A program made the position numbers and the translations under genes. Below are positions 1 through 22,370 of a stretch of 64,000 nucleotides of DNA, piece by piece (the stretch's first letter is position 1; every line of letters starts with the position of its first letter). The stretch covers positions 4,729,829-4,793,828 of the forward strand of contig NC_064458.1 in NCBI RefSeq assembly GCF_023343835.1, read 5' to 3'. The notes under the pieces are model-generated. The model was not told the DNA's origin. It searched no databases and saw only the letters and a list, made by a program, of their open reading frames with translations. This DNA comes from Lagopus muta. Its lineage: Eukaryota.

Positions 1-85
1 AATCCACGCTCATTTACATCAGCTTGCTCAACTTGGTCAACATCAGCCAAGACAATAAATCCCACCCCCACCCCCATCAGCTTCA
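1..85 (+). repeat. 58-bp tandem repeat (partial + 1 unit) at unit boundary; contains AATAAA
   Basis: The units 'ctcaacttggtcaacatcagccaagacRaYaaatcccac...tcagcttg' are the same repeat as at 10021-10136. Confidence 0.7.
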
Positions 86-147
86 TTCTTCTCGTCTTTT
101 CCTGGGGTGGGCAGAGTTCAGACCTCGACCACAGGGTTGCCTTCTCC

Positions 148-1580
148 CCAGCAGAATGGCTCAGGTTGGAGGGGCCCTTAAATATCATCCGGCTCTAACC
201 CCCTTGCCGTGAGCAGGTTCATGCACCACCAGATCAGGATGCCCAGGATCCCATCCACCCTGGCCTCAAAGGACTCCAGCAACGGGGTGTCCTGAACCCC
301 TCAGGGAGGAACCTCGCTGTTCCAGTGCCTCGCCACTCCCTGAGGAAACAGTTTCTTTCTAACACCTCATCTCTCTCTATCCTCTTTTAGTTTCATGCCA
401 TTCCCCCTTGTCCTGTCACTATCAGAATGCATGAAAAAGTCAGTCCTCCTCCAGCTTGGCAGGACCCTTAAAAGTACGAGAAGGCTGTGGGCACAGAGGT
501 CTCCTCAGAGCCTTCTGTTCTGAAAGCAAAGTGAACCCCACTCCCTCAACCTGCCTTCTGAGGTGCGGTGCTCCAGGCCTTGTCTCCTCTTTGCGGCCCT
601 CCTCCGGACCCCCCCTCCCACCGCTCCACACCCCTCCTGTGCTTGGCACCCCAGGCTTGGGCGCAGTACTCCAGATGGATGCCCTCGCAAGGGCACAGCA
701 GAGACGGACAATCACCGCCCTGCCCTGCTGGACACCTTCCTCAGGCCTTCCGGGCTGCAGGCACGCGCTGCTGGCTCATCTCCGGCTTTTTGGCCATTAC
801 GACCCCCAGGTCCTTCTCCACAGGGCTTCTCTCGCTGTCTTCTCCTCCCAGTCTCCACCCGTATCTGCGACTGCCTCAACCCAATCGCAACACCTTGCAC
901 TGGGCCTTGTTAAACCTCACGAGATGCTCACGTGCCCTGTATTCCAGCCTGGGTCCAGGTCCCTCTGGATAGCGTCTCTGCCTTCTGCTGTGCCAAGCGC
1001 ACCATCAGCTCGGTGCCGTCAGCTGGGGGTGCACTCAATCCCACCATCTGTGTCCTTGATAAAAATGCTCACGAGCATCAGTCCCCAGACGGACCCCTGG
1101 GTGCCCGGCCTCCACCTGGACACAGAGCCGCTGGCAGCAATCCTCGGGCACAACATCCAAACAACCTGCATCCACCTGTCTGTTCAACACTCAAATGCAC
1201 ATCTCTCCACTTCAGACATTAGGAGGTGCTGTGGGACGAAGACATCAGTCGCCCTTCCTTTGTCCATCACAGCCATCACTCCATCACCAAAGGCCTCCAG
1301 ATGGCTCAGGCACAGCCGCCCTTGCTGAAGCCGTGCTGGCTGTCTTAGGTCGCCTCCCCATCTCGCGTGTGCCTTCACATCTCCTCCAGGAGGATCCACC
1401 CCGCCATGTTCCCAGGCCCACAGATGAGGCACAGCGGCCTTCAGGCCCAGCTGGCTTCTGGCCCAGCCCCACTGAGGCACGAGGTCTCAAGTCAGGATGG
1501 ATCAAGGCTCTGCTGGCAGGGCAGCCCAATTCTGGGGGTGTTTCATGGCTTGGGGTTGCCACTGTTCTGTATCGTTCATT
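148..1580 (-). mobile_element. CR1 LINE fragment (5'-truncated; RT C-terminal half + 3' end)
   Basis: The + strand reads the CR1 antisense sequence. The - strand encodes RT motifs (...QHGF.KG.SCL.NL..F.D.V...DKGRATDV...) and the C-terminus 'FPQGVARHWN..VQDTPLLESFEARVDGIL' followed by the ggttagagccggatgatatttaagggcccctccaacc tail. Confidence 0.85.
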
Positions 1581-2729
1581 CATTAGCAGCAAACCATTTC
1601 CATTTGTAGTATTTTTTAAAGCGTTGGGGGGAAAAAAAAGGAGAGAAACAAAGCGTAAAACTGGTGGGATATCTGACTTCTTTTTTCGTGAAGGTAGTGC
1701 GTCAATGCCTCGTTTGATGTCAATGGTTGCAATTTTTCGTGAGGTCTTAATGCGTTTGTCAGATTTCTGATGAAATTTTACTCTTGCCATGCAATTGTTC
1801 ACAAGCGTGCTGACTGCCAAAACGCGATGACGTGAATAAGGCTTGACTGCAAAGCGAGGGATATTTCTGTCTGTTAAAAGAGGTCTGACAGAAGTCCAGT
1901 CAGGAGACATGGTTAGATTTTGGAGTCGAATATCTGGTTGGAACTCCAGGCATTCCAATTGAAAACTGGCAGGTAATGCATTTGTATCAACTTAAAATGG
2001 GGTCACCCACATAAAGGGATGATTTTTTGGCAAAATTGAAACCGGTTTCCAAATTCCTTTATCAAAAGAGAAAGCATGGCTGCACATTCTTTGCTGTTCA
2101 GAGCACTGCGTGGGGCCGGGGCTGGGCTGCACTGCTGGCTGTGCGGAGCTGCGCATTGGGTACACCTGCTCTGGGTCCCAGAGAGAGCTCCAACACACAA
2201 AGTAAAGCAATACGGTGCCCAACTCTCTTGCAAAATACTACTTTAGGATTCAGCATTCACCAAGAAAGAGCAAACCTAGCTTTTACAACAGCTCACACAA
2301 ATTACCCAAAGACACCCTGTGAGACAGAAAGCATGAAGATTCATGGAGGCAATCAGCTTTTTTTGGGGTGGAGTTTCAAGCACGCAGCCCAGCCTGGAGC
2401 ACAGCCCCTTTTCCGTTTGTAATCCTGCAGGAGTAGAGCACCTGCTGGGGCACAGAGCATCATCTGGACAGTTTCCACTGACAGAAGTAGAGCATCATAC
2501 TGGGGCAGAAAAAGAAAAAAAAAAGAAAAGAGCATAGCTATATTAAAATACTTTGAACTGAACTTTTCACCCTGCAGGATGAGCTCACTTCAGGGCTCAC
2601 ATCGTGAGAGGTTTGGAAAAAAATATTCAAACATCCTGATTTGTGTTTCCAGTGCTACGGATTAAAAGCTGCAGAAATGCCTTCTCCTCCACCATCCATC
2701 AACTCTGATCCTGGGACAGAGACCCACAA

Positions 2730-2995
2730 ACTCCTCAGGGTTGGAAGGGTCCTCTGAGGGCCATCCGGACCAACCCCCCTGCAGCGCACAGGGACACCGC
2801 AGCTGGGTCAGGTCTCCAGGGACGGAGCACCCAGCGCACCTCTGTGCGACCTGTGCCAGTGCCTCACCACCTCTCTGCAGAAGATTTCGTCCCTATAGCC
2901 AACCTAAACCTCCCCTCTTGGAGCTTGCAGCCATTTCCCTCTCGGAGCTGGAAACCACACTGACACTTTGGTCAGTTTTGGAGCAGAAAATGAGA
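2730..2995 (-). mobile_element. CR1 3'-terminal fragment
   Basis: 'gggttggaagggtcctctgagggccatc...gtgccagtgcctcaccacc...gaagatttcgtccctatagccaacctaaacctcccct' matches the antisense CR1 3'-end architecture. Confidence 0.7.
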
Positions 2996-3049
2996 TGAGA
3001 TGTAGATAGACAGATAACTCGATGTTTTTCTTCCTTGATTTACTATTTA

Positions 3050-3600
3050 TTATGACCTCGCTGACCGACTGCACGCCGCACGCCCAGCACCGCCGCCAGC
3101 TCCAAGCACCACCAGCCCGCCGCGCCGCCAGCGCAGCGCCCTTACACCAACGAGCCGCCGCTTCCGCTCTTCTCGGCACATGCGCAGCACCAGCAGGAGG
3201 ACCCGCTACCATCGAGTTGGAGGGCTGGAGGCACAGAGCAGTCAGAGCAAAGAGGCACCACTTCCGGGTTTCCGGAGGCGTCAGTGTCTGGAGGATCGCT
3301 TCGTATTACCGCAGGGACGGGCGGTACGGAGCGGAGAGAGCAGAGCGACGCGTCGTGCCGCTCCGGGACGGCTCTGTGGTGCTCTGCGGGACCGTGCGGG
3401 CCCCGGGGGGCCCAGAGCGCCCAGAGCTCGTCTGACCCCCCGCTGCCCCTAAAACCGCCGCCGCGGCGGTCCCGACTGCAATTCTGCGCTCCGGTCAAGC
3501 GGTGGCAGCAGAGACCGAGAAAAGAGCGGCGTGGGGCGTGGGTACCGGCGATGGGAGCGGAGCGAGCCTGGGGCTTGGCTCTGCTCGGGTAAATGCGTCC
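3050..3600. promoter_or_regulatory. CpG island inside amplicon unit (orphan)
   Basis: Very CpG-dense (cgccgccagc..gccgcgccgccagcgcagcgcc...). ETS-like 'cacttccgggtttccggagg' and NRF1-like 'gcacatgcgcagc' motifs are present. The long GC-rich ORFs here (e.g. 3142..4026-) are compositional artefacts. Confidence 0.5.
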
Positions 3601-3949
3601 ATTCCAACTGCATTCAGGCTCGGCTAGCTCTGAGCTCTGCCAAAGTGGTTGGCATTTGTCATTGCTGAGCGCACAAAAGGCTCGACCAAAGGTGACGATG
3701 CCCGGAAGGCAGAAGGATGGAGAAAAGCGTGGCCACATCCCTGGCACGGAGCCGAGCCCGTAGCTGGAGAAGGGGGTTGTTCTGCCGGATGTGGACTGGG
3801 AGCGGTTCTGTGCCACGGCCCGAATCTGCCCTTCTTTGGCTTCGGTCGGGCCAGGAGCTGCTGCGCGGTGCCGCACACCGTGCGTGTGCCGTAACCCCAC
3901 GCTGCTCCGTGTGCACGGTGGTTGTGGAGGGCCGTGGTTGTGGGGGGGA

Positions 3950-5070
3950 CCCGAGACCGCCTTCAGCCGGGCGACTGACTCCTGGCTTCTCCGCTGTACT
4001 TCGTACAACCTGTGTTTGTTGTGCACCTTTCACAAGCGTGTGACAGTACAGTGTTTGCTCTGATGCCTTCACAAGGCTGTCACAGCCATGTCTCCTGTCT
4101 CCGGTTAGCCTGTCCACGGGTCCACCTGTGAACCAGACAGAAAGAGGGCGAGAATTCACAGTGTTACAGTTCTGTATGGCATTGTCACAGTCTGAGCCAC
4201 AAAGAAACACGTCGCTTCCTTCACACGCCTACAGAGTATTGAGAGTGAGACATAAATATGTGCGTATACATGCATACAGAGCGTCTGATCCTTCACCAAT
4301 CATAACAGAACTTCTTTTCACCAGCTGCGTATTCACATAGGTTTCACCTTTATAAATGTCCACAGTCCATAAATGCCTCATGAAGCTCATGCAGACTGGG
4401 ACGTGCTTGATCGTTTTTCCAAATCATTTCACTGATGGGCTCCGCCACAAGCTCACCTGAAGCGCAACGGTGCCCAAGCCCAGTGAAAAGTGTTGAAAAG
4501 CAGCAAGGGGCTGGAGATGGAGAAGGGTGAAAGAAGAGCTCGGGTGATGTTTGCACAAAGAACAGAACGTGGAGAGGAACAGCATCCCCAGGTCTTCAAA
4601 TAGACAGAAGTGTTGAGATTGTTTCACTCCCTTCTTCAAGAGTGGATGTGCAGTGGGGTTCATGCCAGCTGACCAGAAAGACACCAAACCTCTATTCATC
4701 AGGGGAAGAGAAGGGTTAGGATGAGCCTGGAAATTATCAACTACTTGGTGTACCATCCAGTCCCGGGACAATTCTAGAAGCTATCACCCAAAAAGTCTTT
4801 CTCAAAAGGTGAAATTTCCTAATGATTTTTGAAGTAGAAGTCACTCTAAGAGGAAATCAGATACAGTTGCACATACAGCACACAGTCCAAATGCGCAGAA
4901 ATTTCTGTGCAAACTGTGCAAAACAAAATGGTAACAAACTCGTGAATGCCTCAGAACAAAAACTGTGCTGCTATGCTCCTGCGAAAGGTGCAGAACAAAC
5001 ATGTTGTGCGTGAGCACAATGGAGAAGTCCGGAGTTTGTTGTCTTGCTTAAGGCGGTCTCGGTTCGATCC
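3950..5070. repeat. ~140-bp inverted-repeat pair (3950-4090 / 4930-5070) flanking ~850 bp; candidate non-autonomous element
   Basis: 3950-4090 is the ~75% reverse complement of 4930-5070 (shared blocks '...gagaccgcctt.ag...ttgt.cacctttc.caag..' ). The right arm ends in a tRNA-T-loop-like 'ggttcgatcccc'. Confidence 0.4.
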
Positions 5071-5149
5071 CCAGCCCCCCACACAACCACCACGCAATGG
5101 GAGAAGCATGACTGGTATGGCATGCACACGGTACATGGCACCAGGCACA

Positions 5150-6250
5150 CTCCACGCCATCTGGAAACTGCTCCTGAGCCAATTGGAAGGGCCCATCCTA
5201 TGGCATAAAATGCATTGCCGACTCCACAGTAGGACCGTCACCCCGGACTTTGGGAGAGCAGGACCTCCTCAGTGGGCCTGCTTGGAGGTATCCCATGGAC
5301 GGGAGCTTTGGCAAGTAGGCCCGAGAGAGCTGCTTGACACTTAAACACCGCTTCCTCCAAGCTCAAGATGGATGCATCCCTGAGAGCAAGAAAGCAGGGA
5401 AAAGTGGCAGGAGAACTGCTGGATAAGCAAGGGGCTCATGGATGGACTCAAAGGGAAGAGGAGCGTACACAGCACGTGGAAGAAGGGCATTTCTACTTGG
5501 AAAGAATGTATGAGCGTTGTCAGGGCCTGCAAGGATGCAATGAGGAAGGCTAAGGCACCCTTGGGATTAAATCCAGCAAAGGCGGTCGAGGAGAACAACA
5601 AGGGCTTTTGTGAGAATGTTGGTAGTAAAACTAAGACTGGAACACATGCGGGTCTGCCACTGAATGCCTTGGTAACAAGGGACAAAGAGAAGGCAGAGGT
5701 ACTGAATGCCTTCTTTGCTTCCATCTTTACTACTAAGATTGCCCCTCCTAAATCCCAGGCCCTGGCGGTAAGAGAGAGAGTCTGGGGAATTAAAGACTTC
5801 CTCCTGCTTGAGGAGGATCTGAACAGGAAGCGTGCAGGCAAAATCAGTGCTCGCAAATTCATGGGCCCTGTGGGGATGCACCCACGTGTGCTGAGAGAGC
5901 TGGTGGAGGTAATTGCTGAACTGCTCTCTATGATCTTGGAGAGGCCTTGGAGAACAGGAGAGCTGCCTGGATGCTGGAGGACAGCCAGCTTCGCACCAGT
6001 CATCGCACCGATGAGTGGGCAGTGAGATGGACTGGGAACTGGCTTGACGACCAAGAGATGATGGAGGGGCCTGGAGCATCTTCCTCACGAGAAAAGGCTG
6101 AGAGACCTAGGACTCTTCAGTCTGGAGAAGAAACGCATGAGCGGGGGATCTCATAACAGTTTGGCCCACTGCGACGGGCCCTGCGTCTGCTCCAAGCCAT
6201 GAGACAGGCCCTGCGCCAGCACCCGACTTCGTGACAGCCCACGTGGTTCA
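5150..6250 (+). mobile_element. CR1 LINE fragment with internal deletion (ORF2 middle joined to the RT C-terminus)
   Basis: The + strand ORFs read 'VLNAFFASIF...SMGPVGMHPRVLRELVEVIAELLSMILERPWRTGELP..W' (CR1 ORF2 sense) and then jump to 'KRLRDLGLFSLEKKRM'. The 5' limit is uncertain. Confidence 0.75.
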
Positions 6251-6749
6251 ACCAGAGAACCCAACTGTGCCAGTATCCATAGCCCTTATTAAAAAGAGCA
6301 AAATGAGGCCGTGAAAATCAGCTCCTTTAATAAGAAAGGAAATACGTTCTAAGAGGGGGGTAGAAGAAGAGGATGAGAATGAAGCCAGGCCATGACAAGA
6401 ACGGCAGGAGGAAGAGGCCGAACTCATAAAGGAGACGAGAACCATTTGACTCCTGAGCACGAGTGAGCTGACAGATATGTGAAAAGACTTCAGCTGTCAT
6501 GCAGGGGAGCACTCTGACACTGGGAGAACGGGGCCGCAAGCCTGGACTAGGCGGGCAGCAAAGGCAGGCATCTGGGATCCCTTTCACGGGCAGGGTGCAT
6601 TGGCAAAGCCCTTGGAAATGAGGCACGAGCCTTCCCCTCGTGGAGGTGACTCTCCGTAAGGGCCGAGAGGGAAAGGAGTCCCTTCAAAGAAGATCTGGTA
6701 TGTTACCCAGGCAAGCGGTGCACCGTGGGGAAAGGTGTGCCTGAGGGCA

Positions 6750-7046
6750 CCAGCTCTTCTGGAGGTGATGCGTAATGCTGAAAAAAGAGGGGAGATACAG
6801 ACTGGCTGTTGGCCGGCAATTGCTGATTCTGAGGGCCCAGGGCTGCCGCCATCTTGCTTGGGAGCCTGGGACGCATTCCGCCCCGAGGGGGTAACCGTGA
6901 TGTCACAGTGGTGGCAGGGAGCGGCCATTGTGACCCATGGGGCTGGGAGCAGAGCAAAGGCTGCCGGGCTCAGAGCGTGGTCAGTGCGGCCTGGTGAGGT
7001 GCAGAGAGAGCAGGGACTCTTCAAGTGCTCACCGTTGACGCGCAAC
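6750..7046 (+). promoter_or_regulatory. Candidate proximal promoter of PHF7-like copy 1
   Basis: This is the region immediately 5' of the ATG exon. It contains a CRE-like 'cgtgatgtcacag' (TGATGTCA) at about 6895-6906 and a 'gccggcaattgctg' CCAAT-like box at about 6815. Confidence 0.3.
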
Positions 7047-7089
7047 ATGTCCAGTAGGAAGCGGAAGGCCCCCGACTCCGGGGAGCAAG
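7047..7089 (+). CDS. PHF7-like copy 1, exon 1 (start codon; MSSRKRKAPDSGEQ + phase-1 G)
   Basis: ATG at 7047 with a CAAG|GTGAGA donor after 7089. The basic KRK N-terminus matches PHF7. The start is the first in-frame ATG of this exon. Upstream coding exons are not excluded. Confidence 0.45.
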
Positions 7090-7272
7090 GTGAGAGCAAA
7101 GCATCCCTGCGTGCAGCTCCCCGCCGCCGGGCAGAGGGGTGCTGGGGGTCTGCCAGCGGCAGAGAGGGAAGGAAGGGGCAGGAGCAAGGAGCACGGCCCT
7201 GGGGACCGCCCTCAGGGACAACTGGCCCCGCAAGGTGCTCACTGCTGCCCGCCTTTGCTCTCTCCTCTCCAG

Positions 7273-7364
7273 TGTGCATGCTGTGTCGCCGGGCGGATGT
7301 CGACCCGAACATCTGCGGGCGCACCTTTGCCGAGAGCGACCTTTGCGTGCATGAGTTCTGCTTG
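7273..7364 (+). CDS. PHF7-like copy 1, exon 2 (C2HC/pre-PHD)
   Basis: '(V)CMLCRRADVDPNICGRTFAESDLCVHEFCL' aligns to PHF7 '[30 protein letters not shown]'. The acceptor is ..ctccag| and the donor is TTG|gtgagt. Confidence 0.7.
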
Positions 7365-7460
7365 GTGAGTTCCAACCCTCAAGGGCTCCTGCCAGCTTCC
7401 TGCCAGGGATGCTCCCTTCCTGTCTGTCCTAACGAGATCCTGCTCTGCTCTTTCCCACAG

Positions 7461-7571
7461 CTTTTTTCTTTGAAGAAAAACACATTCTTTGAAGAAAGCG
7501 ACCCCTGGGAGGAAACGCTGCGCCTCCCCGTTGGGACCATCAGATGCAGAATCAAGCAGGCGGACCAGAAG
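7461..7571 (+). CDS. PHF7-like copy 1, exon 3
   Basis: 'LFSLKKNTFFEESDPWEETLRLPVGTIRCRIKQADQK' is the only open frame, flanked by cccacag| and AAG|gtgagc. It aligns weakly to PHF7 'ILSSKLPQRG...IKKEAARASRK'. Confidence 0.6.
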
Positions 7572-7809
7572 GTGAGCTTTGTGCCAGGAGAGGCTCACGC
7601 CAGCTTAGTCTGCACCCAGAGAAAGCAATGGCAGCCCTTCCAGCGGGCTCCAGGGCAAAGTCCTGCCATAGCAGACGAGCCTTCTCCGCCAGGCGGCTCT
7701 GCAGAGTGGAGCCCAGCAGCTTCCGCAGCCTGTGCCCTGCCCAGAGGTGTGGGGCCGGCCGTGGAGGCCCTGAGCCTGCTGCTGATCGGGGCTGCCTTGT
7801 TCCTTTCAG

Positions 7810-7934
7810 CAATGCTTTGTTTGTGGCGAGAGAGGAGCCGCCATCAGCTGCGCAGAGAGAGGCTGTGCACGCAGCTTCCACCTGCCCTGCGCCGCGGACG
7901 GTGAATGCGTCACCCAGTTCTTTGGGCAGCACAG
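7810..7934 (+). CDS. PHF7-like copy 1, exon 4 (ePHD)
   Basis: 'QCFVCGERGAAISCAERGCARSFHLPCAADGECVTQFFGQH(R)' aligns to PHF7 '[42 protein letters not shown]'. Confidence 0.75.
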
Positions 7935-8084
7935 GTAAGGGCTGTCAGCAGCAGCCAAGCCAGGGAGGAACCCACAGCGACAGCTCCCAGCAGCCTGCCA
8001 GAGATGGGGCCTGGGGCTCCTGCCTGCTGCTCTGCCCTCCTGGCAGTGCTTCTCACTGTGCCCATCACTTGCATCGTCCCCCAG

Positions 8085-8247
8085 GTCCTTCTGCTGCGAG
8101 CACCGCCCGCGACAGGCAGCGGAGGCAGCTCCACCCCAAGGCACTGACTGCGTCATCTGCCTGGAGCCCCTGGAGGACAGCACGTCCTACCAGACCCTGT
8201 GGTGCCCAGCGTGCAAGCACACCTGGTTCCACCGCCGCTGCGTCCAG
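8085..8247 (+). CDS. PHF7-like copy 1, exon 5 (RING/PHD start)
   Basis: 'SFCCEHRPRQ...CVICLEPLEDSTSYQTLWCPACKHTWFHRRCVQ' aligns to PHF7 'SFCDKHRPTQ...CILCCEDLSQQ...CCSQAIYHRKCIQ'. Confidence 0.75.
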
Positions 8248-8338
8248 GTAGAAGCCCTCCCCTCACCCTGCGGCCACGGCCCGCGCTCAGCAGCACCGAG
8301 CCCCGCTCACGCTCACGCTGCTTCTGCTTCTCCGGCAG

Positions 8339-8445
8339 GGGCAGGCCACGAACGCCGGCACCATGTGCTTCCAGTGCCCCATTTGTCGAGACACGGAGCA
8401 ATTCCGGGCAGAAATGTCCACTCTGGGGATCCAAGTCCCAGTCAG
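8339..8445 (+). CDS. PHF7-like copy 1, exon 6
   Basis: 'GQATNAGTMCFQCPICRDTEQFRAEMSTLGIQVPV(R)' aligns to PHF7 '[36 protein letters not shown]'. Confidence 0.75.
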
Positions 8446-8663
8446 GTTGGTGTCCTTCTCCCCAGCGCTGCAGATGGGAAGGCGCGAGCGCTGGGCCTGC
8501 CCAGGGACTGTCCCGGCAGGCCTGGCCCTTTGCTGTCTCACCAGCACAGGCCTCAGCTTCACGGAGAAGCTGGAAATGGGGTTGCCTTGGATGAACGGGG
8601 ATACCCCGGATCACACATGGCAGGGAACCGGGAACTCATCGCATTCCCTCCCTTCTCTTGTAG

Positions 8664-8769
8664 GAGACCGTCTTGGTGGGATGACAACACCTACCCATCA
8701 CTTCTGCGGAGGCACAGGCGCTGCGATGTCAGCAAGTGCCTTTACCCAGGAGGCAGGGAGCAGGCAGAG
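8664..8769 (+). CDS. PHF7-like copy 1, exon 7
   Basis: 'RPSWWDDNTYPSLLRRHRRCDVSKCLYPGGREQAE' aligns to PHF7 '[38 protein letters not shown]'. Confidence 0.7.
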
Positions 8770-8904
8770 GTGAATGGGTGAGTTACCTCAGCAGCCCTCT
8801 GGGCTTCTGCAGGGGATCTCCCCCTCAACACCGGATGGGGAACCAGGGCTGAGCACCGCAGATGTGCCGGCCGCTGCCTGGCTTGGCTCACTTTGTCCTC
8901 ACAG

Positions 8905-9046
8905 CCACAACCCGTTTGCTTCCCCAGGCCCTGGCAGCTGCTGCTCTGCAGCTCCTGTGCTGCAGAAGGGACCCACCGACGATGCTCCTACCTGAGCAAC
9001 AGAGTTGGCAGCTGGGAGTGTGACAGCTGTGCTGGCATAGGCACCG
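8905..9046 (+). CDS. PHF7-like copy 1, exon 8
   Basis: 'PQPVCFPRPWQLLLCSSCAAEGTHRRCSYLSNRVGSWECDSCAGIGT' aligns to PHF7 '[41 protein letters not shown]'. The acceptor ctcacag|CC at 8904 is used. The alternative acceptor at 8927 gives a stop. Confidence 0.6.
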
Positions 9047-9217
9047 GTAAGATGCAAACAGCTGTGGCTCCCTAGGCGGGGGCCGGGCAACGCCTGGCAG
9101 TGGGTGCTGCTCAGGGCGGCCCTGCCAGGCTCTCTCTGCCCCAGGAAGGAGGGCAGCCCGTTGCGACTCAAGGCTGCAGCTTCATCCCAATGATCACCTT
9201 CCTGCTTTCCTTTACAG

Positions 9218-12694: not shown

Positions 12695-12713
12695 TGGTTG
12701 TGTGGGGGGCTGG

Positions 12714-13834
12714 GGATCGAACCGAGACCGCCTTAAGCAAGACAACAAACTCCGGACTTCTCCATTGTGCTCACGCACAACATGTTTGTTCTGCACCTTT
12801 CGCAGGAGCATAGCAGCACAGTTTTTGTTCTGAGGCATTCACGAGTTTGTTACCATTTTGTTTTGCACAGTTTGCACAGAAATTTCTGCGCATTTGGACT
12901 GTGTGCTGTATGTGCAACTGTATCTGATTTCCTCTTAGAGTGACTTCTACTTCAAAAATCATTAGGAAATTTCACCTTTTGAGAAAGACTTTTTGGGTGA
13001 TAGCTTCTAGAATTGTCCCGGGACTGGATGGTACACCAAGTAGTTGATAATTTCCAGGCTCATCCTAACCCTTCTCTTCCCCTGATGAATAGAGGTTTGG
13101 TGTCTTTCTGGTCAGCTGGCATGAACCCCACTGCACATCCACTCTTGAAGAAGGGAGTGAAACAATCTCAACACTTCTGTCTATTTGAAGACCTGGGGAT
13201 GCTGTTCCTCTCCACGTTCTGTTCTTTGTGCAAACATCACCCGAGCTCTTCTTTCACCCTTCTCCATCTCCAGCCCCTTGCTGCTTTTCAACACTTTTCA
13301 CTGGGCTTGGGCACCGTTGCGCTTCAGGTGAGCTTGTGGCGGAGCCCATCAGTGAAATGATTTGGAAAAACGATCAAGCACGTCCCAGTCTGCATGAGCT
13401 TCATGAGGCATTTATGGACTGTGGACATTTATAAAGGTGAAACCTATGTGAATACGCAGCTGGTGAAAAGAAGTTCTGTTATGATTGGTGAAGGATCAGA
13501 CGCTCTGTATGCATGTATACGCACATATTTATGTCTCACTCTCAATACTCTGTAGGCGTGTGAAGGAAGCGACGTGTTTCTTTGTGGCTCAGACTGTGAC
13601 AATGCCATACAGAACTGTAACACTGTGAATTCTCGCCCTCTTTCTGTCTGGTTCACAGGTGGACCCGTGGACAGGCTAACCGGAGACAGGAGACACGGCT
13701 GTGACAGCCTTGTGAAGGCATCAGAGCAAACACTGTACTGTCACACGCTTGTGAAAGGTGCACAACAAACACAGGTTGTACGAAGTACAGCGGAGAAGCC
13801 AGGAGTCAGTCGCCCGGCTGAAGGCGGTCTCGGG
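12714..13834. repeat. Inverted copy of the 140-bp IR-pair element
   Basis: Mirror of 3950-5070 within the inverted arm. Confidence 0.4.
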
Positions 13835-14183
13835 TCCCCCCCACAACCACGGCCCTCCACAACCACCGTGCACACGGAGCAGCGTGGGGTTACGGCACAC
13901 GCACGGTGTGCGGCACCGCGCAGCAGCTCCTGGCCCGACCGAAGCCAAAGAAGGGCAGATTCGGGCCGTGGCACAGAACCGCTCCCAGTCCACATCCGGC
14001 AGAACAACCCCCTTCTCCAGCTACGGGCTCGGCTCCGTGCCAGGGATGTGGCCACGCTTTTCTCCATCCTTCTGCCTTCCGGGCATCGTCACCTTTGGTC
14101 GAGCCTTTTGTGCGCTCAGCAATGACAAATGCCAACCACTTTGGCAGAGCTCAGAGCTAGCCGAGCCTGAATGCAGTTGGAAT

Positions 14184-14734
14184 GGACGCATTTACCCGAG
14201 CAGAGCCAAGCCCCAGGCTCGCTCCGCTCCCATCGCCGGTACCCACGCCCCACGCCGCTCTTTTCTCGGTCTCTGCTGCCACCGCTTGACCGGAGCGCAG
14301 AATTGCAGTCGGGACCGCCGCGGCGGCGGTTTTAGGGGCAGCGGGGGGTCAGACGAGCTCTGGGCGCTCTGGGCCCCCCGGGGCCCGCACGGTCCCGCAG
14401 AGCACCACAGAGCCGTCCCGGAGCGGCACGACGCGTCGCTCTGCTCTCTCCGCTCCGTACCGCCCGTCCCTGCGGTAATACGAAGCGATCCTCCAGACAC
14501 TGACGCCTCCGGAAACCCGGAAGTGGTGCCTCTTTGCTCTGACTGCTCTGTGCCTCCAGCCCTCCAACTCGATGGTAGCGGGTCCTCCTGCTGGTGCTGC
14601 GCATGTGCCGAGAAGAGCGGAAGCGGCGGCTCGTTGGTGTAAGGGCGCTGCGCTGGCGGCGCGGCGGGCTGGTGGTGCTTGGAGCTGGCGGCGGTGCTGG
14701 GCGTGCGGCGTGCAGTCGGTCAGCGAGGTCATAA
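14184..14734. promoter_or_regulatory. CpG island, inverted-arm copy
   Basis: Mirror of 3050-3600. Confidence 0.5.
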
Positions 14735-14788
14735 TAAATAGTAAATCAAGGAAGAAAAACATCGAGTTATCTGTCTATCTACATCTCA

Positions 14789-15054
14789 TCTCATTTTCTG
14801 CTCCAAAACTGACCAAAGTGTCAGTGTGGTTTCCAGCTCCGAGAGGGAAATGGCTGCAAGCTCCAAGAGGGGAGGTTTAGGTTGGCTATAGGGACGAAAT
14901 CTTCTGCAGAGAGGTGGTGAGGCACTGGCACAGGTCGCACAGAGGTGCGCTGGGTGCTCCGTCCCTGGAGACCTGACCCAGCTGCGGTGTCCCTGTGCGC
15001 TGCAGGGGGGTTGGTCCGGATGGCCCTCAGAGGACCCTTCCAACCCTGAGGAGT
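14789..15054 (+). mobile_element. CR1 3'-terminal fragment (inverted copy of 2730-2995)
   Basis: Mirror copy within the inverted arm. Confidence 0.7.
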
Positions 15055-16203
15055 TTGTGGGTCTCTGTCCCAGGATCAGAGTTGATGGATGGTGGAGGAG
15101 AAGGCATTTCTGCAGCTTTTAATCCGTAGCACTGGAAACACAAATCAGGATGTTTGAATATTTTTTTCCAAACCTCTCACGATGTGAGCCCTGAAGTGAG
15201 CTCATCCTGCAGGGTGAAAAGTTCAGTTCAAAGTATTTTAATATAGCTATGCTCTTTTCTTTTTTTTTTCTTTTTCTGCCCCAGTATGATGCTCTACTTC
15301 TGTCAGTGGAAACTGTCCAGATGATGCTCTGTGCCCCAGCAGGTGCTCTACTCCTGCAGGATTACAAACGGAAAAGGGGCTGTGCTCCAGGCTGGGCTGC
15401 GTGCTTGAAACTCCACCCCAAAAAAAGCTGATTGCCTCCATGAATCTTCATGCTTTCTGTCTCACAGGGTGTCTTTGGGTAATTTGTGTGAGCTGTTGTA
15501 AAAGCTAGGTTTGCTCTTTCTTGGTGAATGCTGAATCCTAAAGTAGTATTTTGCAAGAGAGTTGGGCACCGTATTGCTTTACTTTGTGTGTTGGAGCTCT
15601 CTCTGGGACCCAGAGCAGGTGTACCCAATGCGCAGCTCCGCACAGCCAGCAGTGCAGCCCAGCCCCGGCCCCACGCAGTGCTCTGAACAGCAAAGAATGT
15701 GCAGCCATGCTTTCTCTTTTGATAAAGGAATTTGGAAACCGGTTTCAATTTTGCCAAAAAATCATCCCTTTATGTGGGTGACCCCATTTTAAGTTGATAC
15801 AAATGCATTACCTGCCAGTTTTCAATTGGAATGCCTGGAGTTCCAACCAGATATTCGACTCCAAAATCTAACCATGTCTCCTGACTGGACTTCTGTCAGA
15901 CCTCTTTTAACAGACAGAAATATCCCTCGCTTTGCAGTCAAGCCTTATTCACGTCATCGCGTTTTGGCAGTCAGCACGCTTGTGAACAATTGCATGGCAA
16001 GAGTAAAATTTCATCAGAAATCTGACAAACGCATTAAGACCTCACGAAAAATTGCAACCATTGACATCAAACGAGGCATTGACGCACTACCTTCACGAAA
16101 AAAGAAGTCAGATATCCCACCAGTTTTACGCTTTGTTTCTCTCCTTTTTTTTCCCCCCAACGCTTTAAAAAATACTACAAATGGAAATGGTTTGCTGCTA
16201 ATG

Positions 16204-17636
16204 AATGAACGATACAGAACAGTGGCAACCCCAAGCCATGAAACACCCCCAGAATTGGGCTGCCCTGCCAGCAGAGCCTTGATCCATCCTGACTTGAGAC
16301 CTCGTGCCTCAGTGGGGCTGGGCCAGAAGCCAGCTGGGCCTGAAGGCCGCTGTGCCTCATCTGTGGGCCTGGGAACATGGCGGGGTGGATCCTCCTGGAG
16401 GAGATGTGAAGGCACACGCGAGATGGGGAGGCGACCTAAGACAGCCAGCACGGCTTCAGCAAGGGCGGCTGTGCCTGAGCCATCTGGAGGCCTTTGGTGA
16501 TGGAGTGATGGCTGTGATGGACAAAGGAAGGGCGACTGATGTCTTCGTCCCACAGCACCTCCTAATGTCTGAAGTGGAGAGATGTGCATTTGAGTGTTGA
16601 ACAGACAGGTGGATGCAGGTTGTTTGGATGTTGTGCCCGAGGATTGCTGCCAGCGGCTCTGTGTCCAGGTGGAGGCCGGGCACCCAGGGGTCCGTCTGGG
16701 GACTGATGCTCGTGAGCATTTTTATCAAGGACACAGACGGTGGGATTGAGTGCACCCCCAGCTGACGGCACCGAGCTGATGGTGCGCTTGGCACAGCAGA
16801 AGGCAGAGACGCTATCCAGAGGGACCTGGACCCAGGCTGGAATACAGGGCACGTGAGCATCTCGTGAGGTTTAACAAGGCCCAGTGCAAGGTGTTGCGAT
16901 TGGGTTGAGGCAGTCGCAGATACGGGTGGAGACTGGGAGGAGAAGACAGCGAGAGAAGCCCTGTGGAGAAGGACCTGGGGGTCGTAATGGCCAAAAAGCC
17001 GGAGATGAGCCAGCAGCGCGTGCCTGCAGCCCGGAAGGCCTGAGGAAGGTGTCCAGCAGGGCAGGGCGGTGATTGTCCGTCTCTGCTGTGCCCTTGCGAG
17101 GGCATCCATCTGGAGTACTGCGCCCAAGCCTGGGGTGCCAAGCACAGGAGGGGTGTGGAGCGGTGGGAGGGGGGGTCCGGAGGAGGGCCGCAAAGAGGAG
17201 ACAAGGCCTGGAGCACCGCACCTCAGAAGGCAGGTTGAGGGAGTGGGGTTCACTTTGCTTTCAGAACAGAAGGCTCTGAGGAGACCTCTGTGCCCACAGC
17301 CTTCTCGTACTTTTAAGGGTCCTGCCAAGCTGGAGGAGGACTGACTTTTTCATGCATTCTGATAGTGACAGGACAAGGGGGAATGGCATGAAACTAAAAG
17401 AGGATAGAGAGAGATGAGGTGTTAGAAAGAAACTGTTTCCTCAGGGAGTGGCGAGGCACTGGAACAGCGAGGTTCCTCCCTGAGGGGTTCAGGACACCCC
17501 GTTGCTGGAGTCCTTTGAGGCCAGGGTGGATGGGATCCTGGGCATCCTGATCTGGTGGTGCATGAACCTGCTCACGGCAAGGGGGTTAGAGCCGGATGAT
17601 ATTTAAGGGCCCCTCCAACCTGAGCCATTCTGCTGG
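16204..17636 (+). mobile_element. CR1 fragment (inverted copy of 148-1580)
   Basis: ORF 16304..16600+ carries the RT motifs. The C-terminus and 3' tail are at 17400-17636. Confidence 0.85.
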
Positions 17637-17710
17637 GGAGAAGGCAACCCTGTGGTCGAGGTCTGAACTCTGCCCACCCCAGGAAAAGACGAGAAGAATG
17701 AAGCTGATGG

Positions 17711-17872
17711 GGGTGGGGGTGGGATTTATTGTCTTGGCTGATGTTGACCAAGTTGAGCAAGCTGATGTAAATGAGCGTGGATTTGTCGTCTTGGCTGATG
17801 TTGACCAAGTTGAGCAAGCTGATGTAAATGAGCGTGGGATTTGTCGTCTTGGCTGATGTTGACCAAGTTGAG
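17711..17872 (-). repeat. 58-bp tandem repeat, 3 units (one extra versus the forward copy), in the 3' UTR of PHF7-like copy 2
   Basis: It has three units (47+57+58 bp) where the forward copy has two. This is why ORF 17586..18059 carries an extra 'TNPRSFTSACSTWSTSAKT' block. Confidence 0.8.
17725..17730 (-). terminator. AATAAA polyA signal of PHF7-like copy 2
   Basis: 'tttatt' on the + strand, inside the first (diverged) 58-bp unit. Confidence 0.4.
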
Positions 17873-18055
17873 CAGGTGTCATTGGCACCCGGCTGCTCCT
17901 GTGCAGACTGAGGTCTGGCTGTGGGGATGTGGTTCTGCAGATGGACCTGGGAGCAGCTTTGTGCCCAGGCTGGCCGCTGCTGTTGGGTTTGGCTGCTGCG
18001 GCGTGCTGGGGTCTGTGTGGGAAGTCGCAGCCTGACATCCCGCTGCGGAAGGGCT

Positions 18056-18675
18056 TCATGTGTGGGCCCTCCCTTGCTGCCTGGAGGGTCTTCTGTGTCC
18101 AGGCAGCGGGGAACCCCTCGAGGGCCTCGATGTCACTGGGGCGGCTGAGCAGAGGGTGCTGCTCTGTGCAGCTCGGCGTGGTGTTTGTCTGCTGCCACGG
18201 CTTCTTCTGGGCCGGCTCTGGGAACGTGAGGCCCGATCTTGAAGCGGGGAGCGGCTTCGTGCCCGGCCCGTCCCCTGCTGCCTGGGGCTCCTTCTGGGTG
18301 CAGCCACCGGGGAGTCGCTGGAGGGCCGCGGTGCCCTCCGTGGGGTGGACCTGCGGGAGCTGCTGCTGGTGCGCGGGGCTGTTGCACGGCCGCTCCCGCG
18401 GCGTCCTCGGCGCCGCAGAGATGCCTCCTGATCCTCAGGGAGGCGTGGGCCGATTGCCCTCTGCCGTGTCCCAGGCTCACTGGGCAGGCGGCTGTTCTCA
18501 GGCAGCTGGGACCGGTGTGAGGGGCCCGATGCTGCCTGGCTGCTGGAGCCGGAGCTGATGTTCTCCGGTCCCTGGGAGCCACGGGGAGGCTCCGGAGCCC
18601 CTTGGCTGGAAGTGCTGGGGCCGGCGCGCTCCGTGTTGGTGCTGGGTCCGGCGCGCTCCGTGTTGCTGCTGGAGG
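18056..18675 (-). CDS. PHF7-like copy 2, exon 9 (basic SR-rich tail; differs from copy 1 by Q->R: EASLRRRGRRG)
   Basis: Mirror of 9218-9837. ORF 18056..18793- differs from 9100..9837+ by a single residue. Confidence 0.6.
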
Positions 18676-18846
18676 CTGTAAAGGAAAGCAGGAAGGTGAT
18701 CATTGGGATGAAGCTGCAGCCTTGAGTCGCAACGGGCTGCCCTCCTTCCTGGGGCAGAGAGAGCCTGGCAGGGCCGCCCTGAGCAGCACCCACTGCCAGG
18801 CGTTGCCCGGCCCCCGCCTAGGGAGCCACAGCTGTTTGCATCTTAC

Positions 18847-18988
18847 CGGTGCCTATGCCAGCACAGCTGTCACACTCCCAGCTGCCAACTCTGTTGCTCA
18901 GGTAGGAGCATCGTCGGTGGGTCCCTTCTGCAGCACAGGAGCTGCAGAGCAGCAGCTGCCAGGGCCTGGGGAAGCAAACGGGTTGTGG
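18847..18988 (-). CDS. PHF7-like copy 2, exon 8
   Basis: Mirror of 8905-9046. Confidence 0.6.
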
Positions 18989-19123
18989 CTGTGAGGACAA
19001 AGTGAGCCAAGCCAGGCAGCGGCCGGCACATCTGCGGTGCTCAGCCCTGGTTCCCCATCCGGTGTTGAGAGGGAGATCCCCTGCAGAAGCCCAGAGGGCT
19101 GCTGAGGTAACTCACCCATTCAC

Positions 19124-19229
19124 CTCTGCCTGCTCCCTGCCTCCTGGGTAAAGGCACTTGCTGACATCGCAGCGCCTGTGCCTCCGCAGAAGTGATGGGT
19201 AGGTGTTGTCATCCCACCAAGACGGTCTC
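19124..19229 (-). CDS. PHF7-like copy 2, exon 7
   Basis: Mirror of 8664-8769. Confidence 0.7.
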
Positions 19230-19447
19230 CTACAAGAGAAGGGAGGGAATGCGATGAGTTCCCGGTTCCCTGCCATGTGTGATCCGGGGTATCCCCGTTC
19301 ATCCAAGGCAACCCCATTTCCAGCTTCTCCGTGAAGCTGAGGCCTGTGCTGGTGAGACAGCAAAGGGCCAGGCCTGCTGGGACAGTCCCTGGGCAGGCCC
19401 AGCGCTCGCGCCTTCCCATCTGCAGCGCTGGGGAGAAGGACACCAAC

Positions 19448-19554
19448 CTGACTGGGACTTGGATCCCCAGAGTGGACATTTCTGCCCGGAATTGCTCCGT
19501 GTCTCGACAAATGGGGCACTGGAAGCACATGGTGCCGGCGTTCGTGGCCTGCCC
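19448..19554 (-). CDS. PHF7-like copy 2, exon 6
   Basis: Mirror of 8339-8445. Confidence 0.75.
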
Positions 19555-19645
19555 CTGCCGGAGAAGCAGAAGCAGCGTGAGCGTGAGCGGGGCTCGGTGC
19601 TGCTGAGCGCGGGCCGTGGCCGCAGGGTGAGGGGAGGGCTTCTAC

Positions 19646-19808
19646 CTGGACGCAGCGGCGGTGGAACCAGGTGTGCTTGCACGCTGGGCACCACAGGGTC
19701 TGGTAGGACGTGCTGTCCTCCAGGGGCTCCAGGCAGATGACGCAGTCAGTGCCTTGGGGTGGAGCTGCCTCCGCTGCCTGTCGCGGGCGGTGCTCGCAGC
19801 AGAAGGAC
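19646..19808 (-). CDS. PHF7-like copy 2, exon 5
   Basis: Mirror of 8085-8247. Confidence 0.75.
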
Positions 19809-19958
19809 CTGGGGGACGATGCAAGTGATGGGCACAGTGAGAAGCACTGCCAGGAGGGCAGAGCAGCAGGCAGGAGCCCCAGGCCCCATCTCTGGCAGGC
19901 TGCTGGGAGCTGTCGCTGTGGGTTCCTCCCTGGCTTGGCTGCTGCTGACAGCCCTTAC

Positions 19959-20083
19959 CTGTGCTGCCCAAAGAACTGGGTGACGCATTCACCGTCCGCG
20001 GCGCAGGGCAGGTGGAAGCTGCGTGCACAGCCTCTCTCTGCGCAGCTGATGGCGGCTCCTCTCTCGCCACAAACAAAGCATTG
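19959..20083 (-). CDS. PHF7-like copy 2, exon 4
   Basis: Mirror of 7810-7934. Confidence 0.75.
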
Positions 20084-20321
20084 CTGAAAGGAACAAGGCA
20101 GCCCCGATCAGCAGCAGGCTCAGGGCCTCCACGGCCGGCCCCACACCTCTGGGCAGGGCACAGGCTGCGGAAGCTGCTGGGCTCCACTCTGCAGAGCCGC
20201 CTGGCGGAGAAGGCTCGTCTGCTATGGCAGGACTTTGCCCTGGAGCCCGCTGGAAGGGCTGCCATTGCTTTCTCTGGGTGCAGACTAAGCTGGCGTGAGC
20301 CTCTCCTGGCACAAAGCTCAC

Positions 20322-20432
20322 CTTCTGGTCCGCCTGCTTGATTCTGCATCTGATGGTCCCAACGGGGAGGCGCAGCGTTTCCTCCCAGGGGTCGCTTTCT
20401 TCAAAGAATGTGTTTTTCTTCAAAGAAAAAAG
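20322..20432 (-). CDS. PHF7-like copy 2, exon 3
   Basis: Mirror of 7461-7571. Confidence 0.6.
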
Positions 20433-20528
20433 CTGTGGGAAAGAGCAGAGCAGGATCTCATTAGGACAGACAGGAAGGGAGCATCCCTGGCAGGAAGCTG
20501 GCAGGAGCCCTTGAGGGTTGGAACTCAC

Positions 20529-20620
20529 CAAGCAGAACTCATGCACGCAAAGGTCGCTCTCGGCAAAGGTGCGCCCGCAGATGTTCGGGTCGACATCCGC
20601 CCGGCGACACAGCATGCACA
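20529..20620 (-). CDS. PHF7-like copy 2, exon 2
   Basis: Mirror of 7273-7364. Confidence 0.7.
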
Positions 20621-20803
20621 CTGGAGAGGAGAGAGCAAAGGCGGGCAGCAGTGAGCACCTTGCGGGGCCAGTTGTCCCTGAGGGCGGTCCCCAGGGCCGT
20701 GCTCCTTGCTCCTGCCCCTTCCTTCCCTCTCTGCCGCTGGCAGACCCCCAGCACCCCTCTGCCCGGCGGCGGGGAGCTGCACGCAGGGATGCTTTGCTCT
20801 CAC

Positions 20804-20846
20804 CTTGCTCCCCGGAGTCGGGGGCCTTCCGCTTCCTACTGGACAT
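20804..20846 (-). CDS. PHF7-like copy 2, exon 1
   Basis: Mirror (27893-x) of 7047-7089. Identical at the protein level (ORF 19989..20996-). Confidence 0.45.
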
Positions 20847-21143
20847 GTTGCGCGTCAACGGTGAGCACTTGAAGAGTCCCTGCTCTCTCTGCACCTCACC
20901 AGGCCGCACTGACCACGCTCTGAGCCCGGCAGCCTTTGCTCTGCTCCCAGCCCCGTGGGTCACAATGGCCGCTCCCTGCCACCACTGTGACATCACGGTT
21001 ACCCCCTCGGGGCGGAATGCGTCCCAGGCTCCCTAGCAAGATGGCGGCAGCCCTGGGCCCTCAGAATCAGCAATTGCCGGCCAACAGCCAGTCTGTATCT
21101 CCCCTCTTTTTTCAGCATTACGCATCACCTCCAGAAGAGCTGG
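20847..21143 (-). promoter_or_regulatory. Candidate proximal promoter of PHF7-like copy 2
   Basis: Mirror of 6750-7046. Confidence 0.3.
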
Positions 21144-21642
21144 TGCCCTCAGGCACACCTTTCCCCACGGTGCACCGCTTGCCTGGGTAACATACCAGAT
21201 CTTCTTTGAAGGGACTCCTTTCCCTCTCGGCCCTTACGGAGAGTCACCTCCACGAGGGGAAGGCTCGTGCCTCATTTCCAAGGGCTTTGCCAATGCACCC
21301 TGCCCGTGAAAGGGATCCCAGATGCCTGCCTTTGCTGCCCGCCTAGTCCAGGCTTGCGGCCCCGTTCTCCCAGTGTCAGAGTGCTCCCCTGCATGACAGC
21401 TGAAGTCTTTTCACATATCTGTCAGCTCACTCGTGCTCAGGAGTCAAATGGTTCTCATCTCCTTTATGAGTTCGGCCTCTTCCTCCTGCCGTTCTTGTCA
21501 TGGCCTGGCTTCATTCTCATCCTCTTCTTCTACCCCCCTCTTAGAACGTATTTCCTTTCTTATTAAAGGAGCTGATTTTCACGGCCTCATTTTGCTCTTT
21601 TTAATAAGGGCTATGGATACTGGCACAGTTGGGTTCTCTGGT

Positions 21643-22370
21643 TGAACCACGTGGGCTGTCACGAAGTCGGGTGCTGGCGCAGGGCCTGTCTCATGGCTTG
21701 GAGCAGACGCAGGGCCCGTCGCAGTGGGCCAAACTGTTATGAGATCCCCCGCTCATGCATTTCTTCTCCAGACTGAAGAGTCCTAGGTCTCTCAGCCTTT
21801 TCTCGTGAGGAAGATGCTCCAGGCCCCTCCATCATCTCTTGGTCGTCAGCCAGTTCCCAGTCCATCTCACTGCCCACTCATCGGTGCGATGACTGGTGCG
21901 AAGCTGGCTGTCCTCCAGCATCCAGGCAGCTCTCCTGTTCTCCAAGGCCTCTCCAAGATCATAGAGAGCAGTTCAGCAATTACCTCCACCAGCTCTCTCA
22001 GCACACGTGGGTGCATCCCCACAGGGCCCATGAATTTGCGAGCACTGATTTTGCCTGCACACTTCCTGTTCAGATCCTCCTCAAGCAGGAGGAAGTCTTT
22101 AATTCCCCAGACTCTCTCTCTTACCGCCAGGGCCTGGGATTTAGGAGGGGCAATCTTAGTAGTAAAGATGGAAGCAAAGAAGGCATTCAGTACCTCTGCC
22201 TTCTCTTTGTCCCTTGTTACCACGGCATTCAGTGGCAGACCCGCATGTGTTCCAGTCTTAGTTTTACTACCAACATTCTCACAAAAGCCCTTGTTGTTCT
22301 CCTCGACCGCCTTTGCTGGATTTAATCCCAAGGGTGCCTTAGCCTTCCTCATTGCATCCTTGCAGGCCCT
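21643..22370 (-). mobile_element. CR1 fragment (inverted copy of 5520-6250), truncated at the amplicon edge
   Basis: Mirror of the CR1 at 5150-6250. The copy stops at 22370. Confidence 0.75.

Follow-up and report, generated by a model that had tools for sequence, protein, structure and literature searches.

How a gene-bearing unit of about 10 kb comes to be present in both orientations, and in nearly identical copies, is the question raised by a stretch of 64,000 nucleotides of Lagopus muta (GCF_023343835.1, NC_064458.1, positions 4,729,829 to 4,793,828; the window in what follows), whose first 22,532 bp consist of such units and carry two genes similar to PHF7. An original prediction, made from the letters of this stretch, had seen in them the architecture of the sex-chromosome or ampliconic palindromes that maintain testis gene families. 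The comparisons described here suggest that the window probably holds the end, proximal to the major vault protein gene (MVP), of a real multi-copy array of PHF7-like genes on an autosomal microchromosome of L. muta, with a history that would involve an old inversion, exchange between the copies and two end-joining events. The amplification of PHF7 in galliform birds has already been published, and the ptarmigan structure is a further example of this known type of array.

The geometry of the repeats was obtained by self-BLAST of the window, with Tandem Repeats Finder (TRF) for the short tandem repeats; positions within the unit are preceded by U, U1 being position 1 of the window. Positions 1-1158 recur in direct orientation at 10,052-11,210 (99.66% identity), which gives a unit period of 10,051 bp; positions 1-6578 are the reverse complement of 11,207-17,783 (99.89%), and 5518-10,114 that of 17,779-22,374 (99.72%). 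Read from the left, a complete unit, c1 (U1-U10051; 1-10,051, plus strand), runs off the left edge of the window and is followed by a partial unit, c2 (U1-U1158; 10,052-11,210, plus strand), which stops at a junction called here J1. Beyond it come two partial inverted units, c3 (U6578 down to U1; 11,207-17,783, minus strand) and c4 (U10114 down to U5518; 17,779-22,374, minus strand), the latter being the terminal gene-bearing unit beside MVP and ending at a second junction, J2. A forward block of 1.115 (1.12) units is in this way joined without spacer to 1.11 inverted units, and a 161-bp edge piece (U1570'-U1411'; 22,372-22,532, minus strand), 96.3% identical to the internal copies, closes the array. 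The unit boundary carries a 58-bp tandem repeat, with 2.0 copies at 10,019-10,135 (plus strand) and, as a 57/58-bp repeat of the inverted arm, 2.7 copies at 17,719-17,874 (minus strand). The differences between copies, as collected in the variant table, are nearly all substitutions, with no homopolymer indels: nine over 6.6 kb between c1 and c3, and 13 over 4.6 kb between c1 and c4. There is no N base in the window, so that every junction lies inside contiguous assembled sequence and a scaffolding misjoin can be ruled out.

Much of this agrees almost exactly with the original prediction, which had counted 1.12 forward and 1.11 inverted copies of a unit of about 10 kb without spacer, as well as a difference of one unit in the 58-bp repeat; its figures of 10,052 bp for the unit and about 99.8% for the identity of the arms become 10,051 bp and 99.7-99.9%. 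On the other hand, its junctions at 11,217 and 22,370 have to be moved to 11,207-11,210 and 22,372-22,374, and what it took for a CR1 piece of about 93% identity at the right edge is the terminal unit of the array. Its head-on palindrome does not hold either. Unit position 1158 on the plus strand is joined to position 6578 on the minus strand, a phase-shifted and not a mirror-symmetric junction; no unique spacer lies between the inverted arms, and the nearest inverted homologues are 4.6 or 5.4 kb apart, the intervening DNA being unit sequence itself. J1 has rather the look of a secondary junction, made by end joining within an inverted array that already existed.

The two PHF7-like genes, modelled under the guidance of the annotated L. 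muta PHF7-like protein, are both intact and convergent, one in each orientation, as had been predicted. Copy A (7047-9837, plus strand) has nine coding exons with GT-AG at all introns and, with translation starting at the Met at 7047, a product of 497 aa; this product (P0126) is identical to XP_048783379/80, and the RefSeq models extend its open reading frame (ORF) upstream to 6768. Copy B (18,056-20,846, minus strand), taken from the exon model and RefSeq, also shows nine exons with canonical splice sites, and differs from copy A by Q379R in the 497-aa product (residue 472 in the 590-aa model). The doubtful upstream extension found in some RefSeq isoforms contains a stop codon in copy B and does not exist in chicken. 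Copy B corresponds exactly to another annotated protein, XP_048783196.1 (P0128), which also reads through the additional 58-bp repeat unit. The alternative C-terminus of this protein, spliced into and translated through the repeat at 17,719-17,874 downstream of copy B, has the appearance of an annotation artefact or else of a minor isoform.

A Pfam search with the gene model of the window detected PF13771 (zf-HC5HC2H, E=2.7e-11), PF13639 (zf-RING_2) and PF13832, and homologues carry the precomputed PF26054, the architecture of the family being an extended PHD, a RING finger and a C-terminal PHD_G2E3. The best match in a protein search was 'PHD finger protein 7-like [Lagopus muta]' (97% identity), followed by hundreds of avian PHF7-like proteins. 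The ratio of nonsynonymous to synonymous substitution rates (dN/dS) amounts to 0.31-0.48 when the gene is compared with those of L. leucura, Tympanuchus and chicken, which indicates that the gene is constrained and not decaying. By these domains and by its intact, constrained coding sequence, it belongs to the PHF7/G2E3-type family of PHD-RING proteins. An annotated L. muta paralogue on the same scaffold (P0001; XP_048783370-73) shows Arg57 in place of the His57 present in both copies of the window, and at least one further copy must therefore exist outside it, in keeping with the predicted continuation of the amplicon past the left edge.

The position of the array in the genome can be deduced from its flanks. 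A unique spacer (22,533-27,013, minus strand) separates it from MVP and aligns to the DNA downstream of chicken MVP (locus L004, 300-4717, 82-86% identity), as well as to Tympanuchus and L. leucura. MVP itself (27,014-36,485, minus strand) is recognized by the Pfam domains Vault_2, Vault and MVP_shoulder on minus-strand ORFs at 28.9-36.5 kb, and the 3' end of chicken MVP aligns at 27,014-27,969. The chicken sequence downstream of the gene aligns with the window from 27,969 to 22,532 on the minus strand and stops precisely where the array ends, at 22,532. With MVP on one side, the locus is bounded by a ceramide-synthase-like (CERS-like) gene on the other. Since this synteny is shared with a 5.4-Mb chicken chromosome record, and since the scaffold of the array in L. 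muta measures 4,861,958 bp, the locus is a conserved autosomal microchromosome site and does not belong to Z or W. The chicken record, CM028509.1, is presumably chromosome 28, judging by the order of the accessions.

In both chicken assemblies (GRCg7b, CM028509.1, 5.44 Mb; GRCg7w, CM028550.1), MVP is followed about 10 kb further on by a tandem array of at least seven PHF7-like genes with a period of about 9.75 kb, all of them codirectional with MVP. Adjacent chicken units are 99.4-99.65% identical, the six places examined all encode an identical 484-aa protein, and the unit is colinear with that of the ptarmigan, c1 included, at 75-88% identity. Head-to-tail units, of 10,051 bp in the window and about 9.75 kb in chicken, are hence found at orthologous loci beside MVP, which points to an old galliform array at a conserved site. 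As the chicken genes are codirectional with MVP, the minus-strand copy B keeps the ancestral orientation, and the block described as forward in the window is the inverted part. Some shorter products, of 398 and 414 aa, occur among the identical 484-aa copies of the chicken array (loci L004/L005 as compared to L001), and the first unit lies at a different distance from MVP in the two assemblies, CM028509.1 and CM028550.1, which probably differ in copy number and content.

Two other grouse carry the array in both orientations. In L. leucura, where loci L007 and L009 were merged to 34 kb (JAHKMA010000059.1, 37,453-71,531), the gene order with MVP set as plus is MVP(+), b(+), a(-) and CERS-like(-), with a convergent pair as in L. 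muta. In the orientation of the window, the left half runs from CERS-like(+) through its flank to U6207, gene a(+), U1 and U5754, up to a junction sequence, x', which is AT-rich and about 135 bp long; from x', the right half runs through U1672(-), U1(-), gene b(-) and U5518(-) to J2, the edge piece, the spacer and MVP(-). The result is a palindrome with arms of 5,644 bp at 99.8% identity, a PHF7-like gene in each, and a single spacer of 4.2 kb between them, composed of unit sequence (U1673-5754) and about 135 bp of non-unit DNA. Positions 19,778-34,079 of the merged locus align unbroken to 16,547-30,838 of the window (98.5%), with c4 colinear over its full length. An independent assembly thus reproduces J2, the edge piece, c4 and the start of c3, all of which are older than the Lagopus split.

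In Tympanuchus pallidicinctus (loci L008 and L010, JAPCYR010000043.1, assembled with NextDenovo from high-fidelity (HiFi) reads) the locus shows a third structural state, a direct duplication of 16.7 kb (L008 1-4945 versus 16,679-21,621, 99.76%). The repeated module consists of a PHF7-like gene, part of a unit in inverted orientation, 2.3 kb from the spacer next to MVP and 4.5 kb from the CERS-like flank. The breakpoint of the x junction is identical in L. leucura and Tympanuchus (...AAAACTGGTGG joined to AATATTATAAATTTCATG...), which implies that both orientations of the unit are older than these species. The spacer lies in opposite orientation in the two of them, the L. leucura order being the flipped form of that of Tympanuchus. 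The x sequence is absent from the L. muta window.

In spite of this age, the copies resemble each other within each species more than between species. Over 3.1 kb (U8041 to U1148), the plus and minus copies of L. muta were compared with both arms of L. leucura, with Tympanuchus as the outgroup: 39 sites are fixed between the species and common to both orientations, and not a single site is orientation-specific. Over the same segment, plus and minus copies of L. muta are 99.84% identical and share 14 derived sites, and the arms of L. leucura are 100% identical, as compared to 98.67% between the two species. More generally, identity within species reaches 99.7-99.9% in L. muta, 99.8-100% in L. 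leucura and 99.4-99.65% in chicken, whereas L. muta shows 98.7% with L. leucura, 97.7% with Tympanuchus and 88.9% with chicken, the pattern of concerted evolution. These figures indicate that copies of both orientations have been homogenised together within each species. With both orientations ancestral, the 39 against 0 sites would require exchange between inverted copies, or repeated re-duplication. Of the two possibilities originally predicted, a recent duplication or ongoing conversion, homogenisation is in this way borne out and a single recent duplication alone is not; the data indicate gene conversion or unequal exchange, conversion as such being the presumed mechanism.

The distribution of the remaining differences offers further hints. 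All 11 differing alignment columns between the arms of L. leucura lie at most 1,146 bp from the outer end or at most 60 bp from the inner end, with no difference at all in the central 4.4 kb; gene conversion would be expected to give such an edge effect. A possible origin of these boundary variants at the formation of the x junction was rejected, as the junction copy of Tympanuchus does not have them; the inner-end variants must have arisen after the junction was formed. In L. muta, the 13 differences between c1 and the terminal unit c4 are spread evenly along the unit, and together with the 3.7% divergence of the edge piece they suggest that homogenisation becomes weaker toward the end of the array.

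J2 (U5518(-) joined to U1570'(-); 22,372-22,374) shows a 3-bp microhomology, ACA, and is common to L. leucura, whose 14.3-kb colinear alignment with the window passes through it uninterrupted. Tympanuchus carries the undeleted version, a minus-strand piece that runs from U5754 to U1411 directly into the MVP spacer, so that J2 equals a 3.9-kb deletion within the terminal unit. The same piece identifies the remnant to the right of J2: its Tympanuchus counterpart continues into U1571 and onward at one end and into the MVP spacer at the other, and the edge piece is accordingly the ancestral terminal unit of the array.

J1 (U1158(+) joined to U6578(-); 11,207-11,210) appears to be lineage-specific. 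It reads ...GGCACAACATCC joined to CGATGCCTGCC..., with a 4-bp microhomology, ATCC, an adjacent 1-bp deletion (one A is missing relative to the inverted unit) and no homology between its two sides other than these 4 bp. Of the nine differences between c3 and c1, seven are crowded into the 250 bp beside J1 (binomial P=3.9e-9), against two in the other 6.3 kb, and c2 has a private G>A at 12 bp from the junction; the changes derived in c3 amount to six in 250 bp, with 1.1 expected if changes had accumulated neutrally, at the rate of the L. muta lineage, since its split from L. leucura (P=0.001). A source of these substitutions in a diverged boundary copy of the CERS-like side (U6207-6578) was rejected, because the boundary copy of L. 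leucura has the states of c1 and c4, not those of c3. A 40-mer across J1 is absent from the chicken, L. leucura and Tympanuchus loci L001-L008, and L. leucura locus L009, whose alignment to the window is limited to positions beyond 16,547, does not have the junction either. The junction thus belongs to L. muta alone, if not just to this one assembly. The microhomology, the 1-bp deletion and the tight cluster of substitutions would together make it a real repair junction and, most probably, not an assembly error. The inverted arrangement would precede speciation, as the x junction is common to L. leucura and Tympanuchus and J2 to the two Lagopus species, with J1 confined to L. muta.

The most likely pathway to this structure would start with units of about 10 kb, with one PHF7-like gene each, in an old galliform tandem array adjoining MVP. 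The end of the array on the CERS-like side would have been inverted in an ancestor of the grouse, and both orientations would have coexisted since then, giving rise to convergent genes. Near-identity would be kept by unequal exchange between direct copies and by gene conversion between inverted copies, fading at the boundaries of homology, and the array of L. muta would have been remodelled by two end-joining events, J2, shared with L. leucura, and J1, its own. The order of these events and the origin of J1 by deletion are most simply explained from a starting grouse layout in which plus-strand sequence running from U1 to U1672 was followed by x and then by U5754(-) to U1(-) and a minus-strand gene. 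A tandem gain on the minus side would come first, through unequal exchange in U5518-5754, which is a direct repeat in that isomer. After that, about 9.9 kb would be lost between (+)U1159 and (-)U6579 of the following unit, a deletion removing the older palindrome centre and one gene copy and leaving exactly U1158(+) joined to U6578(-), then U1(-), gene B(-) and U5518(-) at J2. A single deletion from a centre like that of L. leucura fails, since U5755-6578 is missing beside x, and the prior gain on the minus side is needed. Full-length forward units on the left may derive from minus-strand units that were turned round when inverted copies recombined, a process that would also explain the opposite orientation of the spacer in L. 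leucura and Tympanuchus. As alternatives for J1, a simple inversion with breakpoints U1158/1159 and U6578/6579, or a fold-back or template-switch duplication, could be considered.

Several explanations that dispense with such a history, or with part of it, have to be weighed against an old and homogenised array. J1 and the forward block could be an assembly artefact, produced by a chimeric or fold-back HiFi read or by a false haplotype join or duplication, with a true centre like that of L. leucura. Near-identical repeats of 10 kb are difficult to assemble, the divergence of the arms is comparable to allelic heterozygosity in grouse, and the centre common to L. leucura and Tympanuchus, in which J1 is absent, is a different one. 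However, no N or gap marks any junction, and as the sides of J1 are homologous over 4 bp only, an overlap-based assembler cannot generate it unless the reads contain it. A chimeric read or a haplotype join would unite ordinary copies and could not create the private substitutions found on both sides of J1, seven within 250 bp and one at 12 bp, at about ten times the background density. The copies differ by substitutions and not by homopolymer indels; the assembly (bLagMut1, from a female bird) was made with hifiasm from HiFi reads at 57.75x coverage, with purge_dups applied, and with Hi-C; and the convergent pair, J2, the edge piece and the minus-strand units reappear in the independent assembly of L. 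leucura. An artefact is, in consequence of these observations, quite improbable. A real structure whose identity comes from a very recent inverted duplication in L. muta, by fold-back or template switching as in microhomology-mediated break-induced replication (MMBIR) and with no ongoing conversion, has somewhat more in its favour and is still unlikely. Microhomology, a 1-bp deletion and nearby point changes at a junction specific to L. muta are what replicative repair typically leaves behind, copies A and B have in common a derived His57 that is missing in the third copy, and the differences between c1 and c4 are even along the unit instead of concentrated at its edges. Yet plus and minus units, together with J2, were already present in the Lagopus ancestor, in spite of which the copies share 14 derived sites and have no orientation-specific one. 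The arms of L. leucura flank a junction that predates the split of Lagopus and Tympanuchus and are nevertheless identical over their central 4.4 kb, something that one recent duplication does not account for, and the tandem array of chicken is equally homogeneous within its species over a much deeper divergence.

The sex-chromosome framing of the original prediction, that is, an ampliconic palindrome linked to Z or W in the way of the mammalian Y or the avian W, could appeal to a gene family that is testis-enriched in chicken and to a sequenced bird that is female, so that W is present in the assembly. This framing is not supported: the MVP and CERS-like flanks are conserved on the 5.4-Mb chicken record and on the scaffolds of L. 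leucura and Tympanuchus, and both this synteny and the size class of the 4.86-Mb scaffold fit an autosomal microchromosome, which makes sex linkage extremely improbable. On the other side of the balance, some points weigh against the old, homogenised array proposed here. J1 has been found in one assembly only, and its derivation by deletion requires an unobserved intermediate with two minus-strand gene units. The cluster of substitutions beside it may stem from error-prone repair at its formation instead of escape from conversion; it may also mean that the boundary is older than it appears and has escaped homogenisation, both options being biological. A divergence of 0.1-0.3% between arms is similar in magnitude to the heterozygosity of grouse (0.37% in Tympanuchus) and by itself would be compatible with allelic sequence. 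The identical interiors of the L. leucura arms could partly be due to assembly collapse, although this assembly does resolve differences between the arms at more than 1 kb from a boundary. Finally, a testis function of the ptarmigan copies would be an extrapolation from the chicken literature.

The expansion of PHF7 in chicken has reportedly been described by Fouchecourt et al. in Genomics in 2022. Within the family, 63 co-orthologs have been counted in chicken, testis-enriched with a relative testis expression of at least 50% (PMC6609395), which agrees with the testis gene family of the original prediction as regards chicken and would extend to the ptarmigan copies by analogy. PHF7-like clusters occur on several chicken chromosomes, with annotation counts from 0 to 68 (PMC11835228), and the family is expanded in turkey too (PMC10360393). 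The L. muta array resembles the MVP-side array of chicken (CM028509.1) in its gene family, its one-gene unit of about 10 kb, its position beside MVP and its near-identity within the species, whereas the chicken genes are head-to-tail and codirectional with MVP in the stretches examined, and those of the ptarmigan lie in both orientations, with two end-joining junctions and convergent genes. No report of this grouse-specific inverted configuration at the MVP-linked array, or of its three species-specific states, was found in the literature. With inverted duplication (DUP-INV) junctions attributed to MMBIR or alternative end joining, J1 shares a microhomology in the range of 3-4 bp, a breakpoint with a small indel and point changes in excess over the adjoining few hundred bp; unlike them, it would have arisen in an already inverted array and may be a deletion, a mechanism proposed from the junction itself.

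Sex chromosomes provide well-known cases of palindromes kept by gene conversion. Like the palindromes of the primate Y (P1-P8) and of the sparrow and blackbird W, the grouse locus shows inverted arms of at least 99.8% identity with a gene of testis type, and arms that are closer within a species than between species, that diverge only at their ends and that enclose a spacer in either orientation. In contrast, it is autosomal, its arms measure 5-11 kb instead of tens of kb to Mb, and they form part of a tandem array; in L. muta, moreover, the junction is phase-shifted and the 'spacer' is unit sequence with a gene copy, which leaves the orthologue of L. leucura much closer to the definition of a palindrome. 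The chances are about even that grouse possess, on an autosomal microchromosome, a palindrome system comparable to those of Y and W, with conversion between arms and decay at the edges, a spacer found both ways and loss of the centre. If so, three related species in three structural states would offer a natural series for the formation, homogenisation and decay of palindromes outside sex chromosomes. Near-perfect inverted and tandem amplicons with a gene of spermatogenesis type would, in any case, not be confined to the sex chromosomes of birds, and the locus appears to provide, at the level of coordinates, an inverted arrangement that is older than the species and whose copies are almost identical, the signature of concerted evolution. 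Gene counts, orthology calls and variant calls at this locus need validation by long reads.

Other features of the window can be described more briefly. The unit contains an ORF (5438-6025, plus strand; mirrored at about 11,759-12,346 and, truncated by J2, at about 21,867-22,374) that we take for a fragment of a CR1-like long interspersed nuclear element (LINE), having recognized an ORF2 motif by eye; a Pfam search gave no match for it. The entire window was negative in scans with Rfam and for tRNA genes. Degenerate 8-bp tandem repeats are present in the spacer, as (AGAATCAT)n at 23,856-24,075 (about 27 copies), and inside MVP, as (CTAGAATC)n at 31,438-31,752 (about 39 copies); they seem to resemble the 8-bp microsatellite tails of CR1 elements. 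A 570-aa open frame at 60,427-62,136 (minus strand), in a stretch of 61% GC, has a retroviral integrase-like motif (DQGTHF...LPYNPTGAGLIERYNGILK) in its C-terminal half; Pfam returned no match for it at E<=0.001, and the motif, identified by eye, suggests a fragment of an endogenous retrovirus. The ORF at 45,544-46,170 (minus strand) matches the olfactory-receptor profile 7tm_1 at profile positions ~27-117 only, and is a partial or pseudogenised olfactory receptor gene. Lastly, two segments at 46,573-46,757 and 51,536-51,859 match parts of the chicken PHF7-like unit at about 73% identity and are probably copies of an interspersed repeat that is also present within the unit, around U1090-1400.

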